DNA of 64,000 nt from Escherichia coli (GTDB lineage Bacteria > Pseudomonadota > Gammaproteobacteria > Enterobacterales > Enterobacteriaceae), in NCBI RefSeq assembly GCF_016026235.1, contig NZ_CP065613.1; one strand, 5' to 3'. The translations under genes were made by a program, and so were the position numbers. The notes under the pieces are model-generated. The model saw nothing but the letters and a program-made list of their open reading frames with translations, was not told the DNA's origin and made no database searches. Positions 1,453-48,005 of the stretch are shown piece after piece; the stretch's first letter is position 1, and each line of letters begins with the position of its first letter.

Positions 1453-2970
1453 TCATCCTTCGTTATGCATTTCGAGATTTTCCACTTCGTTCTGACGTTG
1501 CACTGCTTTGGCGTCGTCATTACGTAAAGTATCGAGGAAATCGAGGTAGCCCTGATCAACATCTTTGGTGACGTAGACGCCGTTGAACACCGAGCATTCA
1601 AACTGCTGGATATCCGGGTTTTCAGCGCGAACGGCGTCGATCAGATCGTTCAGATCCTGGAAAATCAACCCGTCAGCACCGATGATCTGGCGAATTTCAT
1701 CTACTTCGCGACCGTGAGCGATCAGTTCCGTAGCGCTCGGCATATCGATACCGTAAACGTTCGGGAAGCGAATTTCCGGTGCCGCAGAAGCGAGGTACAC
1801 TTTCTTCGCTCCGGCTTCGCGTGCCATCTCGATAATCTGCTCAGAAGTGGTGCCACGGACGATGGAGTCGTCGACCAGCAGGACGTTTTTATCGCGGAAC
1901 TCGGCGCGGTTGGCGTTCAGTTTACGGCGCACGGACTTACGACGCAGCTGCTGGCCCGGCATGATGAAGGTGCGGCCAACATAGCGGTTTTTAACGAAGC
2001 CCTGGCGGTATGGTTTGCCCAGAATACGAGCAATTTCCAGCGCGATATCACACGAGGTTTCCGGAATAGGGATCACCACGTCGATATCCAGATCTTCCCA
2101 TTCGCGGGCAATTTTCTCACCCAGTTTCGTGCCCATATTCACACGTGCGCTGTAAACGGAAATTTTGTCGATGAACGAGTCCGGGCGGGCAAAGTATACA
2201 TACTCAAACAGGCACGGATTGCTGACCGGATTGTCAGCACATTGACGGGTAAACAACTGCCCTTCTTCAGTGATGTAAATCGCTTCGCCCGGCGCGACGT
2301 CACGCAGGAAATCAAAGCCCAGCGTATCGAGCGCTACGCTTTCGGAAGCGACCATATATTCTGTGCGGTTCTCGTCAATATCACGTTTTCCCAGAACCAG
2401 CGGACGAATACCGTTTGGATCGCGGAAAGCAACCATACCGTGGCCGATAATCATCGCCACACAGGCATACGCGCCGCGGATTAAGCGGTTTGTAGCAGCG
2501 ATGGCGGCGAAAATGTTGTCGGCTTCCAGCGGGTAGTGGCGGAAGTTGTCCAGCTCGCTGGCGAAGATATTAAGCAGAATTTCCGAGTCGGAAGTGGTGT
2601 TGATGTGGCGGCGTTTTTCTTCAAACAGTTTTTTGCGCAACTCGTGAGCGTTGGTCAGATTGCCGTTGTGGGCAAGCGTAATGCCATACGGGGAGTTAAC
2701 GTAAAACGGCTGCGCTTCAGAGGCGCTGGAGCTGCCAGCCGTAGGGTAACGCACATGACCAATGCCCATATTGCCCTGCAAACGCTGCATATGGCGAGCT
2801 TCAAATACATCGCTCACCAGCCCGTTCGCTTTACGCAAACGGAAGCAGTTATTGGCATCTATGGTGATGATGCCGGCGGCATCCTGACCGCGATGCTGAA
2901 GCACCGTTAAGGCATCATAAATCGACTGGTTAACCGGCATAACACCGGCGATACCGACAATACCGCACAT
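1453..2970 (-). CDS. purF: Amidophosphoribosyltransferase
   Basis: 505-aa ORF starting MCGIVGIAG (N-terminal Cys amidotransferase motif); PRTase domain. Confidence 0.95.
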
Positions 2971-3006
2971 ACGTCTTTTTCCTCGTTAAGCCACATCTCA
3001 GAGCAC

Positions 3007-3495
3007 TTACGCTCTGGGCAAGAAACTTGACGAGCTTTGCAGATAATCAAAAAACCATCTGATGATAAAACTGAACTGCGGGATCAGCTGTGATTTGCTC
3101 CAGTCTTCGCTTTTCGACACCCCGGTAAAGGAGTCGAGAAAGAAGAGAATGGCAGCAACAATCAACACACCGCGCAACGCACCGAAACAGACGCCCAGCA
3201 CCCGATCGGTGCCTGACAACCCCGTTTTCTCCACCAGCTGGCCTATCACGAAGTTCACGATAGCACCAACGATCAGGGTAGCGATAAATAGTACCGCGAT
3301 GGCAATCCCATTTCGAACCAGTTCGTCTTCAAAGCCCGTAAACCAGACTGACAGGTAAGTGTAGTAATGACTGGCAACAAAGAAAGCACACCCCCATGTC
3401 ACCAGCGATAACGCTTCACGAACAAAGCCGCGGATCAGGCTAACCAGAGAGGAAAAAGCAATCACCGCGATTATGGCGTAATCAATCCAGACCAT
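3007..3495 (-). CDS. cvpA: Colicin V production membrane protein
   Basis: 162-aa hydrophobic ORF MVWIDYAIIAVIAFSSLVSLIRGF...; position upstream of purF in the same operon. Confidence 0.9.
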   Translation of the reverse strand: MVWIDYAIIAVIAFSSLVSLIRGFVREALSLVTWGCAFFVASHYYTYLSVWFTGFEDELVRNGIAIAVLFIATLIVGAIVNFVIGQLVEKTGLSGTDRVLGVCFGALRGVLIVAAILFFLDSFTGVSKSEDWSKSQLIPQFSFIIRWFFDYLQSSSSFLPRA

Positions 3496-3552
3496 ATGTG
3501 TCCCACGATTTTACGCCCTGTCATCCTGTTCGGGGCGCATTCTAACAGAAAA

Positions 3553-3568
3553 AGAAAACGTTTGCGTA
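3553..3568. promoter_or_regulatory. Putative PurR operator upstream of cvpA-purF-ubiX
   Basis: AGAAAACGTTTGCGTA matches the PurR box palindrome (core AAACGTTT), about 58 bp upstream of the cvpA start. Confidence 0.55.
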
Positions 3569-3660
3569 GGGATTTCCTTCCCGCGCATCAATAAAAATGG
3601 CGCTGAAAAAATATTCAACGCCATCGACTTTTTATGCCTTTGCGGCATCGTGCAATGCGT

Positions 3661-4020
<360 letters not shown>

Positions 4021-10954: not shown

Positions 10955-13128
<2,174 letters not shown>

Positions 13129-39371: not shown

Positions 39372-39446
39372 GTCCTCTTAGTTAAATGGATATAACGAGC
39401 CCCTCCTAAGGGCTAATTGCAGGTTCGATTCCTGCAGGGGACACCA
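39372..39446 (+). tRNA. argW: tRNA-Arg (anticodon CCU)
   Basis: GTCCTCTTAGTTAAATGGATATAACGAGCCCCTCCTAAGGGCTAATTGCAGGTTCGATTCCTGCAGGGGACACCA: 75 nt, cloverleaf-compatible, anticodon loop CUCCUAA, 3' CCA encoded. Confidence 0.92.
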
Positions 39447-39887
39447 GATACCCTTCAAACCAAATCTACCTTCACCCCGTCAAAGATGGGTTTGGCAGCA
39501 CATTTGCCTTATATCTACTCATTTTTACTGCAACAGGTTGAAATCTCAGCACTGTCAGAAAGTGCTGATGACTAAACAGCCCTGGGCCGGGCGATGTAAC
39601 CATCACACAGAATCCTGATAGCGAAATATGGCGTGACTCGATACTTCACTCCGCAATGCATTCCTTGATGAATTCGCAGGCCCGTGATACACGGGAAAGG
39701 TCGCTGAATGACGACAATGTCCTGGAAATCAGCGAACCGTGTATCCGGAGTACATTTGAGCGACTGTACCAGAACATGAATGAGGTGTTTGGATTAGGCG
39801 ATTATTAGCAGGGCTAAGCATTTTACTATTATTATTTTCCGGTTGAGGGATATGGAGATATCGACAACAACCGGAAAAAGTTTACGT

Positions 39888-41135
39888 CTATATTGCTGAA
39901 GGTACAGGCGTTTCCATAACTATTTGCTCGCGTTTTTTACTCAGGAAGAAAATGCCAAATAGCAACATCAGGCAGACAATACCCGAAATTGCGAAGAAAA
40001 CTGTCTGGTAGCCTGCGTGGTCAAAGAGTATCCCAGTCGGCGTTGAAAGCAGCACAATCCCAAGCGAACTGGCAATTTGAAAACCAATCAGAAAGATCGT
40101 CGACGACAGGCGCTTATCAAAGTTTGCCACGCTGTATTTGAAGACGGATATGACACAAAGTGGAACCTCAATGGCATGTAACAGCTTCACTAATGAAATA
40201 ATCCAGGGGTTAACAAACAGCGCGCAGGAAAGGATACGCAACGCCATAATCACAACACCGATAAGTAATGCATTTTTTGGCCCTACCCGATTCACAAAGA
40301 AAGGAATAATCGCCATGCACAGCGCTTCGAGTACCACCTGGAATGAGTTGAGATAACCATACAGGCGCGTTCCTACATCGTGTGATTCGAATAAACCTGC
40401 ATAAAAGACAGGAAAAAGTTGTTGATCAAAAATGTTATAGAAAGACCACGTCCCAACAATAAATATGACGAAAACCCAGAAGTTTCGATCCTTGAAAACT
40501 GCGATAAAATCCTCTTTTTTTACCCCTCCCGCATCCGCCGCTACGCACTGGTGATTCTTATCTTTAAAACACATGTTGATCATCATAAATACAGCGCCAA
40601 ATAGCGAGACCAACCAGAAGTTGATATGGGGACTGATACTAAAAAATATGCCGGCAAAGAACGCGCCAATAGCATAGCCAAAAGATCCCCAGGCGCGCGC
40701 TGTTCCATATTCGAAATGAAAATTTCGCGCCATTTTTTCGGTGAAGCTGTCAAGCAAACCGCATCCCGCCAGATACCCCAGGCAAAAAAAGAGCGCCCCC
40801 AGAATTAGACCTACAGAAAAATTGCTTTGCAGTAATGGTTCATAAACGTAAATCATAAACGGTCCGGTCAAGACCTGGATGAAACTCATACACCAGATGA
40901 GCGGTTTCTTCAGACCGAGTTTATCCTGAACGATGCCGTAGAACATCATAAATAGAATGCTGGTAAACTGGTTGACCGAATAAAGTGTACCTAATTCCGT
41001 CCCTGTCAACCCTAGATGTCCTTTCAGCCAAATAGCGTATAACGACCACCACAGCGACCAGGAAATAAAAAAGAGAAATGAGTAACTGGATGCAAAACGA
41101 TAGTACGCATTTCTGAATGGAATATTCAGTGCCAT
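39888..41135 (-). CDS. cscB: Sucrose:H+ symporter (LacY-like MFS permease)
   Basis: 415-aa ORF MALNIPFRNAYYRFASSYSFLFFISWSLWWSLYAIWLKGHLGL... recognised as CscB. Confidence 0.88.
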   Translation of the reverse strand: MALNIPFRNAYYRFASSYSFLFFISWSLWWSLYAIWLKGHLGLTGTELGTLYSVNQFTSILFMMFYGIVQDKLGLKKPLIWCMSFIQVLTGPFMIYVYEPLLQSNFSVGLILGALFFCLGYLAGCGLLDSFTEKMARNFHFEYGTARAWGSFGYAIGAFFAGIFFSISPHINFWLVSLFGAVFMMINMCFKDKNHQCVAADAGGVKKEDFIAVFKDRNFWVFVIFIVGTWSFYNIFDQQLFPVFYAGLFESHDVGTRLYGYLNSFQVVLEALCMAIIPFFVNRVGPKNALLIGVVIMALRILSCALFVNPWIISLVKLLHAIEVPLCVISVFKYSVANFDKRLSSTIFLIGFQIASSLGIVLLSTPTGILFDHAGYQTVFFAISGIVCLMLLFGIFFLSKKREQIVMETPVPSAI

Positions 41136-41206: not shown

Positions 41207-42117
41207 CTATTCCAGTTCTTGTCGACATGGCAGCGCTGTCATTGCCCCTTTCGCCGTTACTGCAAGCGCTCCGCAACGTTGAGCGAGATCGATAATTCGT
41301 CGCATTTCTCTCTCATCTGTAGATAATCCCGTAGAGGACAGACCTGTGAGTAACCCGGCAACGAACGCATCTCCCGCCCCCGTGCTATCGACACAATCCA
41401 CAGACATTCCAGCAAAATGGTGAACTTGTCCTCGATAACAGACCACCACCCCTTCTGCACCTTTAGTCACCAACAGCATGGCGATCTCATACTCTTTTGC
41501 CAGGGCGCATATATCCCGATCGTTCTGTGTTTTTCCACTGATAAGTCGCCATTCTTCTTCCGAGAGCTTGACGACATCCGCCAGTTGTAGCGCCTGCCGC
41601 AAACACAAGCGGAGCAAATGCTCGTCTTGCCATAGATCTTCACGAATATTGGGATCGAAGCTGACAAAACCTCCGGCATGCCGGATCGCCGTCATCGCAG
41701 TAAATGCGCTGGTACGCGAAGGCTCGGCAGACAACGCAATTGAACAGAGATGTAACCATTCGCCATGTCGCCAGCAGGGCAAGTCTGTCGTCTCTAAAAA
41801 AAGATCGGCACTGGGGCGAACCATAAACGTAAATGAACGTTCCCCTTGATCGTTCAGATCGACAAGCACCGTGGATGTCCGGTGCCATTCATCTTGCTTC
41901 AGATACGTGATATCGACTCCCTCAGTTAGCAGAGTTCTTTGCATTAACGCACCAAAAGGATCATCACCGACCCGACCTATAAACCCACTTATTCCGCCTA
42001 ATCTGGCGATTCCCACCGCAACGTTAGCTGGCGCGCCGCCAGGACAAGGCAGTAGGCGCCCGTCTGATTCTGGCAAGAGATCTACTACCGCATCCCCTAA
42101 AACCCATACTTTGGCTG
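41207..42117 (-). pseudogene. cscK: Fructokinase cscK body; the ATG and first nucleotide of codon 2 are separated from it by IS4 and lie at 43556..43559
   Basis: Frame reads ...(I)TAKVWVLGDAVVDLLPESDGRLLPCPGGAPANVAVGIARLGG... (pfkB family) up to the IS4 left end; splicing out IS4 and one target-duplication copy restores ATG TCA GCC AAA GTA TGG = MSAKVW. Confidence 0.8.
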
Positions 42118-43543
42118 TAATGCCGATCAGTTAAGGATCAGTTGACCGATCCAGTGGCTGTGTAAGAATCCGGAAACGCTCACTTGTTTCCGGATTTTTT
42201 TATGCACATTGGACAGGCTCTTGATCTGGTATCCCGTTACGATTCTCTGCGTAACCCACTGACTTCTCTGGGGGATTACCTCGACCCCGAACTCATCTCT
42301 CGTTGCCTTGCCGAATCAGGTACTGTAACGCTACGCAAGCGCCGTCTTCCCCTCGAAATGATGGTCTGGTGTATTGTTGGCATGGCGCTTGAGCGTAAAG
42401 AACCTCTTCACCAGATTGTGAATCGCCTGGACATCATGCTGCCGGGCAATCGCCCCTTCGTTGCCCCCAGTGCCGTTATTCAGGCCCGCCAGCGCCTGGG
42501 AAGTGAGGCTGTCCGCCGCGTGTTCACGAAAACAGCGCAGCTCTGGCATAACGCCACGCCGCATCCGCACTGGTGCGGCCTGACCCTGCTGGCCATCGAT
42601 GGTGTGTTCTGGCGCACACCGGATACACCAGAGAACGATGCAGCCTTCCCCCGCCAGACACATGCCGGGAACCCGGCGCTCTACCCGCAGGTCAAAATGG
42701 TCTGCCAGATGGAACTGACCAGCCATCTGCTGACGGCTGCAGCCTTCGGCACGATGAAGAACAGCGAAAATGAGCTTGCTGAGCAACTTATAGAACAAAC
42801 CGGCGATAACACTCTGACGTTAATGGATAAAGGTTATTACTCACTGGGACTGTTAAATGCCTGGAGCCTGGCGGGAGAACACCGCCACTGGATGATACCT
42901 CTCAGAAAGGGAGCGCAATATGAAGAGCTCAGAAAACTGGGTAAAGGCGATCATCTGGTGAAGCTGAAAACCAGCCCGCAGGCACGAAAAAAGTGGCCGG
43001 GACTGGGAAATGAAGTGACAGCCCGCCTGCTGACCGTGACGCGCAAAGGAAAAGTCTGCCATCTGCTGACGTCGATGACGGACGCCATGCGCTTCCCCGG
43101 AGGAGAAATGGCGGATCTGTACAGTCATCGCTGGGAAATCGAACTGGGATACAGGGAGATAAAACAGACGATGCAACTGAGCAGGCTGACGCTGAGAAGT
43201 AAAAAGCCGGAGCTTGTGGAGCAAGAGCTGTGGGGTGTCTTACTGGCTTATAATCTGGTGAGATATCAGATGATTAAAATGGCGGAACATCTGAAAGGTT
43301 ACTGGCCGAATCAACTGAGTTTCTCAGAATCATGCGGAATGGTGATGAGAATGCTGATGACATTGCAGGGCGCTTCACCGGGACGTATACCGGAGCTGAT
43401 GCGCGATCTTGCAAGTATGGGACAACTTGTGAAATTACCGACGAGAAGGGGAAGGGCCTTCCCGAGAGTGGTAAAGGAGAGGCCCTGGAAATACCCCACA
43501 GCCCCGAAAAAGAGCCAGTCAGTTGCTTAACTGACTGGCATTA
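42118..43543 (+). mobile_element. IS4 insertion sequence, complete at 1426 bp, flanked by a 12-bp target duplication
   Basis: Terminal inverted repeats TAATGCCGATCAGTTAAGG (42118..) and CTTAACTGACTGGCATTA (..43543); direct repeat ATACTTTGGCTG at 42106..42117 and 43544..43555; encodes the IS4 transposase. Confidence 0.92.
42202..43530 (+). CDS. insG: IS4 transposase
   Basis: 442-aa [52 protein letters not shown]... recognised as IS4 InsG; DDE transposase. Confidence 0.92.
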
Positions 43544-43773
43544 ATACTTTGGCTGACATTTTTTTCCCTTAAATTCATCTGACTTACGCATAGTGATAAA
43601 CCTCTTTTTCGCAAAATCGTCATGGATTTACTAAAACATGCATATTCGATCACAAAATGTCATAGTTAACGTTAACATTTGTGATATTCATCGCATTATG
43701 AAAGTAAGGGACTTTATTTTTATAAAAGTTAACGTTAACAATTCACCAAATTTGCTTAACCAGGATGATTAAA

Positions 43774-46428: not shown

Positions 46429-46659
46429 ATATGGATCATTGTGCTGCCGCTGTATCCCGACATCAGCCCGGAAATTATTGCGATTGCTATCGGTTCAGGT
46501 GCAATTGGCTGCACGATCGTTACGGACTCGCTTTTCTGGCTGGTGAAACAATATTGCGGCGCTACGCTCAATGAAACATTTAAATACTATACGACAGCGA
46601 CATTTATCGCTTCAGTCGTCGCTCTGGCGGGCACATTCCTGCTGTCATTTATCATCTAA
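46429..46659 (+). pseudogene. dsdX: 3' remnant of the D-serine permease gene dsdX (last ~76 codons only)
   Basis: Frame reads ...[76 protein letters not shown], recognised as the DsdX (GntP family) C-terminus; an in-frame stop lies immediately upstream and no N-terminal part is present. Confidence 0.7.
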
Positions 46660-46676
46660 GCGCAAAGAGACGTACT

Positions 46677-48005
46677 ATGGAAAACGCTAAAATGAACTCG
46701 CTCATCGCCCAGTATCCGTTGGTAAAGGATCTGGTTGCTCTTAAAGAAACCACCTGGTTTAATCCTGGCACGACCTCATTGGCTGAAGGTTTACCTTATG
46801 TTGGCCTGACCGAACAGGATGTTCAGGACGCCCATGCGCGCTTATCCCGTTTTGCACCCTATCTGGCAAAAGCATTTCCTGAAACTGCTGCCACTGGGGG
46901 GATTATTGAATCAGAACTGGTTGCCATTCCGGCTATACAAAAACGGCTGGAAAAGGAATATCAACAACCGATCAGCGGGCAACTGTTACTGAAAAAAGAT
47001 AGCCATTTGCCCATTTCCGGCTCCATAAAAGCACGCGGCGGGATTTATGAAGTCCTGGCACACGCAGAAAAACTGGCTCTGGAAGCGGGGTTGCTGACGC
47101 TTGATGATGACTACAGCAAACTGCTGTCTCCGGAGTTTAAACAGTTCTTTAGCCAATACAGCATTGCTGTGGGCTCAACCGGAAATCTGGGGTTATCAAT
47201 CGGCATTATGAGCGCCCGCATTGGCTTTAAGGTGACAGTGCATATGTCTGCTGATGCCCGGGCATGGAAAAAAGCGAAACTGCGCAGCCATGGCGTTACG
47301 GTCGTGGAATATGAGCAAGATTATGGTGTTGCCGTCGAGGAAGGACGTAAAGCAGCGCACTCTGACCCGAACTGTTTCTTTATTGATGACGAAAATTCCC
47401 GCACGTTGTTCCTTGGGTATTCCGTCGCTGGCCAGCGTCTTAAAGCGCAATTTGCCCAGCAAGGCCGTATCGTCGATGCTGATAACCCTCTGTTTGTCTA
47501 TCTGCCGTGTGGTGTTGGCGGTGGTCCTGGTGGCGTCGCATTCGGGCTTAAACTGGCGTTTGGCGATCATGTTCACTGCTTTTTTGCCGAACCAACGCAC
47601 TCCCCTTGTATGTTGTTAGGCGTCCATACAGGATTACACGATCAGATTTCTGTTCAGGATATTGGTATCGACAACCTTACCGCAGCGGATGGCCTTGCAG
47701 TTGGTCGCGCATCAGGCTTTGTCGGGCGGGCAATGGAGCGTCTGCTGGATGGCTTCTATACCCTTAGCGATCAAACCATGTATGACATGCTTGGCTGGCT
47801 GGCGCAGGAAGAAGGTATTCGTCTTGAACCTTCGGCACTGGCGGGTATGACCGGACCTCAGCGCGTGTGTGCATCAGTAAGTTACCAACAGATGCACGGT
47901 TTCAGCGCAGAACAACTGCGTAATACCACTCATCTGGTGTGGGCGACGGGAGGTGGAATGGTGCCGGAAGAAGAGATGAATCAATATCTGGCAAAAGGCC
48001 GTTAA
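46677..48005 (+). CDS. dsdA: D-serine dehydratase (PLP-dependent)
   Basis: 442-aa [34 protein letters not shown]... recognised as DsdA. Confidence 0.93.

Follow-up and report, generated by a model that had tools for sequence, protein, structure and literature searches.

The 50-codon open reading frame (ORF) in the intergenic junction between argW and cscB of Escherichia coli very probably belongs, as far as sequence comparison can tell, to the remains of a DUF4942-family gene that has become a pseudogene, of which it is the longest part still open; nothing in the data points to a function. The sequence analysed here, referred to as the window, is a stretch of 64,000 nucleotides of contig NZ_CP065613.1 (RefSeq assembly GCF_016026235.1). 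The locus combines the three features by which a relic is recognized: a longer homologous gene that is intact, disabling lesions, and variation among strains that follows a neutral pattern. The ORF most likely makes no functional product, judging from the lack of a ribosome-binding site, the retention of only about 30% of the domain, and the neutral drift among strains. The biological weight of the relic is small, as it is a decayed gene fragment that already carries a label in RefSeq; what the analysis usefully adds is a resolved structure of the relic and a case for its annotation as a pseudogene.

The junction between argW and cscB

The junction is 441 bp long (39447..39887), with argW at its left boundary and cscB at its right boundary (Table 1). 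The coordinates and sequence that the first-pass annotation had given for the ORF were confirmed, including the frame being open from position 39572, straight after a TGA codon at 39569-39571. The product of cscB is named either “oligosaccharide MFS transporter” or “sucrose MFS transporter” in RefSeq.

The 3′ end of argW serves as an attachment site for integrating elements. In E. coli K-12 the right end of prophage CPS-53 has a second copy (pawZ) of a 15-nt core of the argW 3′ end, and in O157 and WL164 elements are located between argW and the junction described here. Passages in the literature describe an argW-dsdCXA / cscRAKB variable region, in which the csc genes take the place of dsdC and the 5′ part of dsdX beside argW, as a recombination hotspot (PMC11251922, PMC3032704, citing Jahreis et al. 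2002, Moritz & Welch 2006). The passages naming argW in the csc/argW papers, these two included, do not mention a DUF4942 fragment at the argW-cscB junction. At the other end of the csc region a 3′ remnant of dsdX was located at about 46444-46662 of the window (locus 11560-11778 in strain FDAARGOS_943, shifted by the offset of an IS4-family insertion), just 5′ of an intact dsdA (46677-48005). It is the known right-hand scar of the replacement of dsdC and the 5′ part of dsdX by csc.

Table 1. Features of the argW-cscB junction and its boundaries (positions in the window).
Feature	Position	Strand	Description
argW, tRNA-Arg(CCU)	39372..39446	+	ARAGORN; Rfam tRNA 63.4 bits
Spacer, 66 bp	39447..39512	.	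no DUF4942 similarity (shuffle p=0.87; forced alignment 23-30% nt identity)
Terminator-like hairpin	39494-39508		GGCAGCACATTTGCC then TTATATCT; consensus scan only
Relic segment A	39513..39599	+	codons 38-66 (nt 112-198) of intact DUF4942
Deletion point	39599..39600	+	parental nt 199-253 (codons 67-85), 55 nt, missing
Relic segment B	39600..39800	+	codons 85-151 (nt 254-454) of intact DUF4942
50-codon ORF	39656..39808	+	ATG 39656, TAG 39806-39808, 50 aa, MHSLMNSQARDTRERSLNDDNVLEISEPCIRSTFERLYQNMNEVFGLGDY
3′ flank of cscB, 79 bp	39809..39887	.	no similarity to C-terminal half of DUF4942
cscB, sucrose permease	39888..41135	-	415-aa ORF; right boundary of junction

Homology to the DUF4942 family

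The 78-aa open frame that contains the ORF matched the Pfam model PF13708 (DUF4942) with 39.6 bits (E=5.6e-10; cut-off 25), and the 50-aa ORF alone scored 27.4 bits, still above the 25-bit gathering cut-off; an NCBIfam search returned no family. The Pfam match was limited to profile positions 5-62 of 190 and the domain is hence not complete, intact DUF4942 proteins being 280-283 aa long with the domain at aa 87-276 (profile positions 1-190). In a tblastn comparison of the junction with an intact protein, aa 73-151 of the latter were matched at 53% identity (E=2e-21). Among the 15 residues of the retained region that are near-invariant in the family 11 were kept, the remaining four being replaced (L98S, M99I, D109N, W116R). 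In RefSeq the identical 153-nt coding sequence (CDS) in an identical junction is annotated as WP_038340630.1, “DUF4942 domain-containing protein”. The ORF had initially been described as an orphan, with a homolog search in Enterobacterales proposed as a check; homologs do exist (about 53% protein and 75-76% DNA identity to intact 280-aa genes), and the description as an orphan has to be given up in view of these and of the existing annotation.

A close full-length parent was not found. No full-length protein more than 55% identical was present among 1.84 billion representatives or 5.8 billion clusters, and the E. coli DNA matches included none in the 80-90% nucleotide identity band and no intact gene closer than about 76%. 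One genome per species (GTDB) was scanned with a degenerate DNA pattern derived from the relic motif FERLYQNMNE/D and gave no match, so that the motif is absent from the representative genomes of other species. The parent protein had no match among PDB sequences or in PADLOC. Its AlphaFold model is of moderate quality (pLDDT 69, pTM 0.44), and a Foldseek search of PDB with this model gave no significant match (best E=0.28, TM below 0.2). The sole functional lead comes from PHROG, where one family labelled DNA methyltransferase includes the DUF4942 domain.

Among the database “representatives” of DUF4942 many are fragments or contain frameshifts, and a copy on Klebsiella oxytoca plasmid LR890315 (3776-4618 of the locus examined) is disrupted and carries no annotation. 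Where CP4-type islands degrade, decay of this family seems to be frequent.

Anatomy of the relic

The structure of the relic was determined by alignment of the junction DNA to two intact DUF4942 genes (loci L016 and L004) using MAFFT. Two co-linear pieces of the parent were recognized, separated by a deletion (Table 1).

Segment B is the larger piece and the source of the reading frame of the ORF, with 152/201 identical nucleotides to L016 and 150/201 to L004 (75-76%). Directly past position 39800 the identity falls to 27%, and it amounts to 23-30% on both sides of the relic. Segment A shares 65/87 nucleotides with L016 and 58/87 with L004 (67-75%). It was also recovered as a co-linear piece by blastn (E about 0.01), as the second piece of two matches in a sensitive DNA search (H74 and H75), and by tblastn with 12/28 identities; a shuffle test gave p about 0.004. 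Its parental frame (39513+3n) is other than that of the ORF and is interrupted by two nonsense codons (TAA at 39573-39575 and TAA at 39597-39599), the parent having AAA (Lys) at both positions. The finding of this second piece of the same gene, in another frame and separated by the 55-nt deletion, corrects the earlier description of the junction as otherwise non-coding, gene-derived sequence being present outside the ORF as well.

The loss of 55 nt shifts the frame, so that segments A and B are now in different frames. The deletion is apparent also in matches H74 and H75, in which 279 nt of the query correspond to a 334-nt span of the subject, and the parental gene has two ATGAAA repeats, 54 nt apart, that enclose the sequence lost here. 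Because segment A is in another frame and the 55 nt are missing, the first nine codons of the 79-codon open frame (39572-39598) are out of the parental frame. A tblastn alignment that extended the similarity through 39563-39598 to aa 73-84 was rejected as spurious, since the DNA alignment places this stretch in the other parental frame (aa 55-66). Extensions of the relic to the left into 39447-39512 or to the right into 39806-39887 were supported neither by the shuffle test nor by nucleotide identity.

Neither end of the ORF is an end of the parental gene. Its ATG is the codon of an internal methionine of the parent (Met104), and its TAG is not the native stop and lies one to two codons past the right breakpoint; the ORF exists because Met104 is followed by 49 surviving sense codons and this TAG comes just past the breakpoint. 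Together with the frameshifting deletion and the two TAA codons upstream these boundaries leave no intact frame of a DUF4942 member. About 37 N-terminal and about 129 C-terminal codons have been lost outright. The suggestion that the ORF is the 3′ remnant of a truncated gene thus holds as far as the remnant is concerned; the remnant is an internal piece (aa 85-151) and not the 3′ end, as both ends of the gene are gone.

Distribution among E. coli genomes

The junction was detected in 2,644 of 5,426 complete E. coli genomes, with a coverage of at least 80% in 2,623. All copies were chromosomal and 93-100% identical. The junction is absent from K-12, which carries dsdCXA in place of csc. Where argW is occupied by a prophage or island (O157:H7, KY1497, WL164) the junction sits after the right end of the element. 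The sensitive DNA search separated the genomes into two clean groups, 2,628 with relic alleles of at least 90% identity and a further 1,862 with only intact paralogues at 60-80%. The junction adjoined cscB in all 18 junction-bearing genomes inspected. The conditions that had been named as refuting the initial proposal gave a mixed outcome: homologs exist, but the frame is not conserved among strains, some alleles having early stop codons and others lacking one nucleotide or six codons.

Several individual records deserve mention. In the csc genome of ETEC L7_E1373 the relic and the spacer are replaced by ISEc46 and a fragment of a P4-type integrase. ISEc46 (IS200/IS605 family, tnpA and tnpB) abuts with its right end the base just after the TAG of the relic (…GATTATTAG / CAGGGC…, the slash marking the join; L7_E1373 locus 2960-3010, corresponding to window position 39809), which may reflect a target preference of the IS (TTAG?) followed by deletion. 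In NZ_CP170328.1 (strain BKQ37E) a 63-nt match of 93.7% to window positions 39743-39805 lies at an unrelated chromosomal position (252773-252835) and is unannotated. Matches to “phage” sequences were dismissed as a sign of a phage-borne relic, the records being prophage records that include host flank. GenBank record ON470608.1 (“Escherichia phage vB_EcoS-733R5”, 4301-8699) and three sister records, which were deposited as complete phage genomes, carry tRNA-Arg, the relic junction, cscB, cscK, and cscA as such flank. Two evidently spurious calls, “A-kinase anchor protein 5” and “hypothetical protein”, have been placed in them over the relic region, on the strand opposite to it.

Sequence variation and selection

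Variation was analysed in a set of 11 alleles spanning the identity range. Nucleotide diversity of the ORF (0.041) matched that of the two non-coding parts beside it (0.047 and 0.0475) and that of the cscB synonymous sites (0.047); overall, the junction was about three times as diverse as cscB (0.043 vs 0.013). Variable sites at codon positions 1, 2, and 3 numbered 4, 6, and 7 in the ORF compared to 14, 3, and 35 in cscB. The pN/pS ratio of the ORF (0.38-0.53, based on 17-26 variable sites) compares with 0.07 for cscB and with 0.54 and 1.29 for out-of-frame controls, and is not distinguishable from these controls.

Codon 31 of the ORF is a premature TGA in 3 of the 11 alleles and in all of four added genomes, which were picked because RefSeq annotates nothing at the relic, i.e., in 7/15 altogether; the 50-codon frame is intact in the other 8/15. 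The TGA carriers were all seven genomes examined without a RefSeq CDS for the relic (six with no CDS, and L003, in which a “hypothetical protein” of a prophage overlaps it). In two evenly spaced samples a DUF4942 call was lacking in 10/29 and 11/23 rows, and since every such genome examined carried the TGA the nonsense allele is probably present in a third or more of the junction carriers. Other alleles showed a 1-nt upstream deletion by which the frame is joined to an earlier ATG, giving 79 codons (L008), a 6-codon deletion near the end, or an early end at 59 aa.

Annotation in RefSeq

One and the same relic locus is annotated by RefSeq/PGAP as a 50-aa CDS, as a 60- or 73-aa CDS (apparently with non-ATG starts), as a “hypothetical protein”, or not at all. 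The non-ATG starts are chosen by homology extension. The label “DUF4942 domain-containing protein” is inconsistently applied, and a pseudogene flag was never used by RefSeq for the relic in the loci examined (window ortholog loci L002 and L007-L014). The relic is a clean example of inconsistent annotation and should carry this flag.

Alternative explanations

The junction might matter as an RNA or regulatory element, i.e., as terminator of argW, as 3′ untranslated region or terminator of cscB, or as an unannotated small RNA, with the ORF being incidental. Its presence in 2,623 genomes would agree with such a role. A terminator-like hairpin with a T-rich tail is located 48 nt past argW (Table 1) and could, from its sequence, act as transcription terminator of argW. 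Its fold was only marginally better than that of shuffled sequences (z=-1.7), and it differs among strains by 1-2 nt indels in loci L009, L013, and L014. The 66-bp spacer in which it lies had no similarity to the sequence 3′ of argW in K-12 and ETEC L7_E1373. On the cscB side, the 79-bp flank was kept with cscB at 100% identity in ETEC L7_E1373, where the relic is absent. Another hairpin in this flank (CCGGTTG...CAACCGG, about 39841-39874) was discarded as a cscB terminator, as there was no T-run on either strand and the terminator scan was silent. Against a role of the junction as RNA, a Rfam scan of 39200-40000 (E up to 1) returned nothing besides the tRNA, and the diversity of the junction equals that of cscB synonymous sites, so that extra constraint is not visible. 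We consider this explanation very improbable; it would moreover concern 39447-39512 and 39809-39887 and not the ORF, and is compatible with the latter being part of a pseudogene.

Slightly less credible still is a domesticated small protein, in which a product of 50-79 aa consisting of the N-terminal helices of the DUF4942 domain would be translated and have a function of its own, e.g., as a decoy or interaction module. The frame being open in about half of the sampled alleles, the intact CDS of 50, 60, or 73 aa called by PGAP in many genomes, the pN/pS values nominally below 1, and the helical nature of the retained region in the AlphaFold model of the parent (H79-152) are in keeping with it. 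The signals for translation initiation are lacking, though: GGAG, GAGG, and AGGA are all absent from the 25 nt 5′ of the ATG (GCGTGACTCGATACTTCACTCCGCA), as had been noted at the outset with regard to a Shine-Dalgarno sequence, and a promoter scan of the plus strand revealed no site upstream of the ORF, the sole promoter-like site being downstream. The start codon is the internal Met codon of the parent and the annotated starts differ between genomes (50, 60, 73, 79 aa), non-ATG starts included. The premature TGA, the neutral level of diversity without an excess at third positions, and the loss of 4 of 15 family-conserved residues likewise speak against a frame that is conserved or under purifying selection. 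The proposal of a small island-borne protein made in the first-pass annotation is therefore not supported. A special form of the same idea, to which we attach equally little probability, is that the helical fragment (50-79 aa) is translated where the frame is intact, via read-through from argW or an unrecognized promoter, and acts as a micro-protein, e.g., by interfering with intact DUF4942 proteins encoded on CP4-type islands, which most E. coli genomes carry.

The explanation that the frame is open by chance, in non-coding DNA without gene ancestry, is refuted by the homology to DUF4942 (Pfam and tblastn scores, and 201 nt aligned at 75-76%), even though the length of the ORF is unremarkable, as an open frame of at least 78 codons occurred in 30% and an ATG-initiated ORF of at least 50 codons in 34% of 5,000 shuffles of the 441-bp junction; it is because of the homology and not the length that the ORF is non-random.

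Proposed origin of the relic and neighboring insertions

At three independent loci the intact DUF4942 gene was found to be the last gene of a CP4-type tRNA-associated island carrying the CbtA/CbeA (YeeV/YeeU) toxin-antitoxin system. The genes of these islands are arranged in the order DUF932, antirestriction, RadC/JAB, DUF987, YeeU/CbeA, CbtA, DUF5983, DUF957, and DUF4942, followed by the chromosomal flank or a tRNA gene. For the pseudogene relic at argW, a history can be envisaged in which a CP4-type island was formerly present at argW, be it in the lineage of E. coli or in the csc donor. Nearly the whole island would then have been lost by deletion, apart from the DUF4942 fragment, and the relic would since have been inherited as a block with cscBKAR.

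The lack of any further trace of the island in the window counts against an island at argW. Between argW (39446) and the relic (39513) there are only 66 bp and no CP4-type island genes, the junction contains no integrase ORF, and a second att core was not detected, the 23-nt and 15-nt 3′ ends of argW occurring once in the 64-kb window (allowing at most 3 and 2 mismatches, respectively). Linkage of the relic to cscB is tight, as indicated by the 2,623 genomes with the full junction, and the relic may hence serve as a marker of a CP4-type island once at or next to the argW-csc junction that could help to reconstruct the acquisition of csc. It may be left over from the island or donor context by which the csc genes reached argW.

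Two further insertions were observed in the vicinity. An IS4-family element at 42118-43543 (transposase ORF 42184-43530, + strand, with Pfam domains Nterm_IS4 and DDE_Tnp_1) ends in 18-nt terminal inverted repeats and is flanked by a 12-bp target duplication (ATACTTTGGCTG, window 42106-43555). It sits in the first codons of cscK, so that cscK and probably also the downstream cscB are cut off from the start and promoter in the window strain. Strain FDAARGOS_943, with a junction 100% identical to that of the window, does not have this insertion. In the same strain a yfdF-like pseudogene located between fadL and mlaA contains an IS1 (locus 1487-3868). This IS1 is absent from window 35709-37314, and the spacing of fadL and mlaA is 776 bp shorter in the window. 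A 224-aa ORF at 36459-37133 of the window had no Pfam match, and its counterpart is marked by RefSeq as a pseudogene with an internal stop.

Comparison with known systems

The relic was compared with the DUF4942 (PF13708) proteins, e.g., WP_001280481.1 and WP_001280435.1 (280-281 aa), to which it has 53% amino acid identity over aa 85-151 and 75-76% nucleotide identity. Like intact DUF4942 copies it has the same direction as the adjacent tRNA gene and lies next to a tRNA-linked integration hotspot. Unlike the intact genes it has about 96 codons left out of 280, split between two frames; it bears the 55-nt deletion and the pair of nonsense codons and is devoid of the native start and stop. The partner genes of CP4-type islands (DUF957, DUF5983, cbtA/cbeA, radC, and others) are absent beside the relic, which sets it apart from these islands.

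Decayed remnants of cryptic elements at E. coli tRNA genes offer a further comparison, e.g., pawZ of K-12, a pseudo-copy of the argW 3′ end located where CPS-53 ends. While pawZ is the att duplicate of a prophage that is still present, the element of the relic is gone but for one gene fragment, and no att duplicate exists in the window. Both are leftovers of mobile elements at the argW hotspot that are vertically inherited and have no evident function. With respect to the argW-dsdCXA / cscRAKB variable region, the relic is situated at the same locus.
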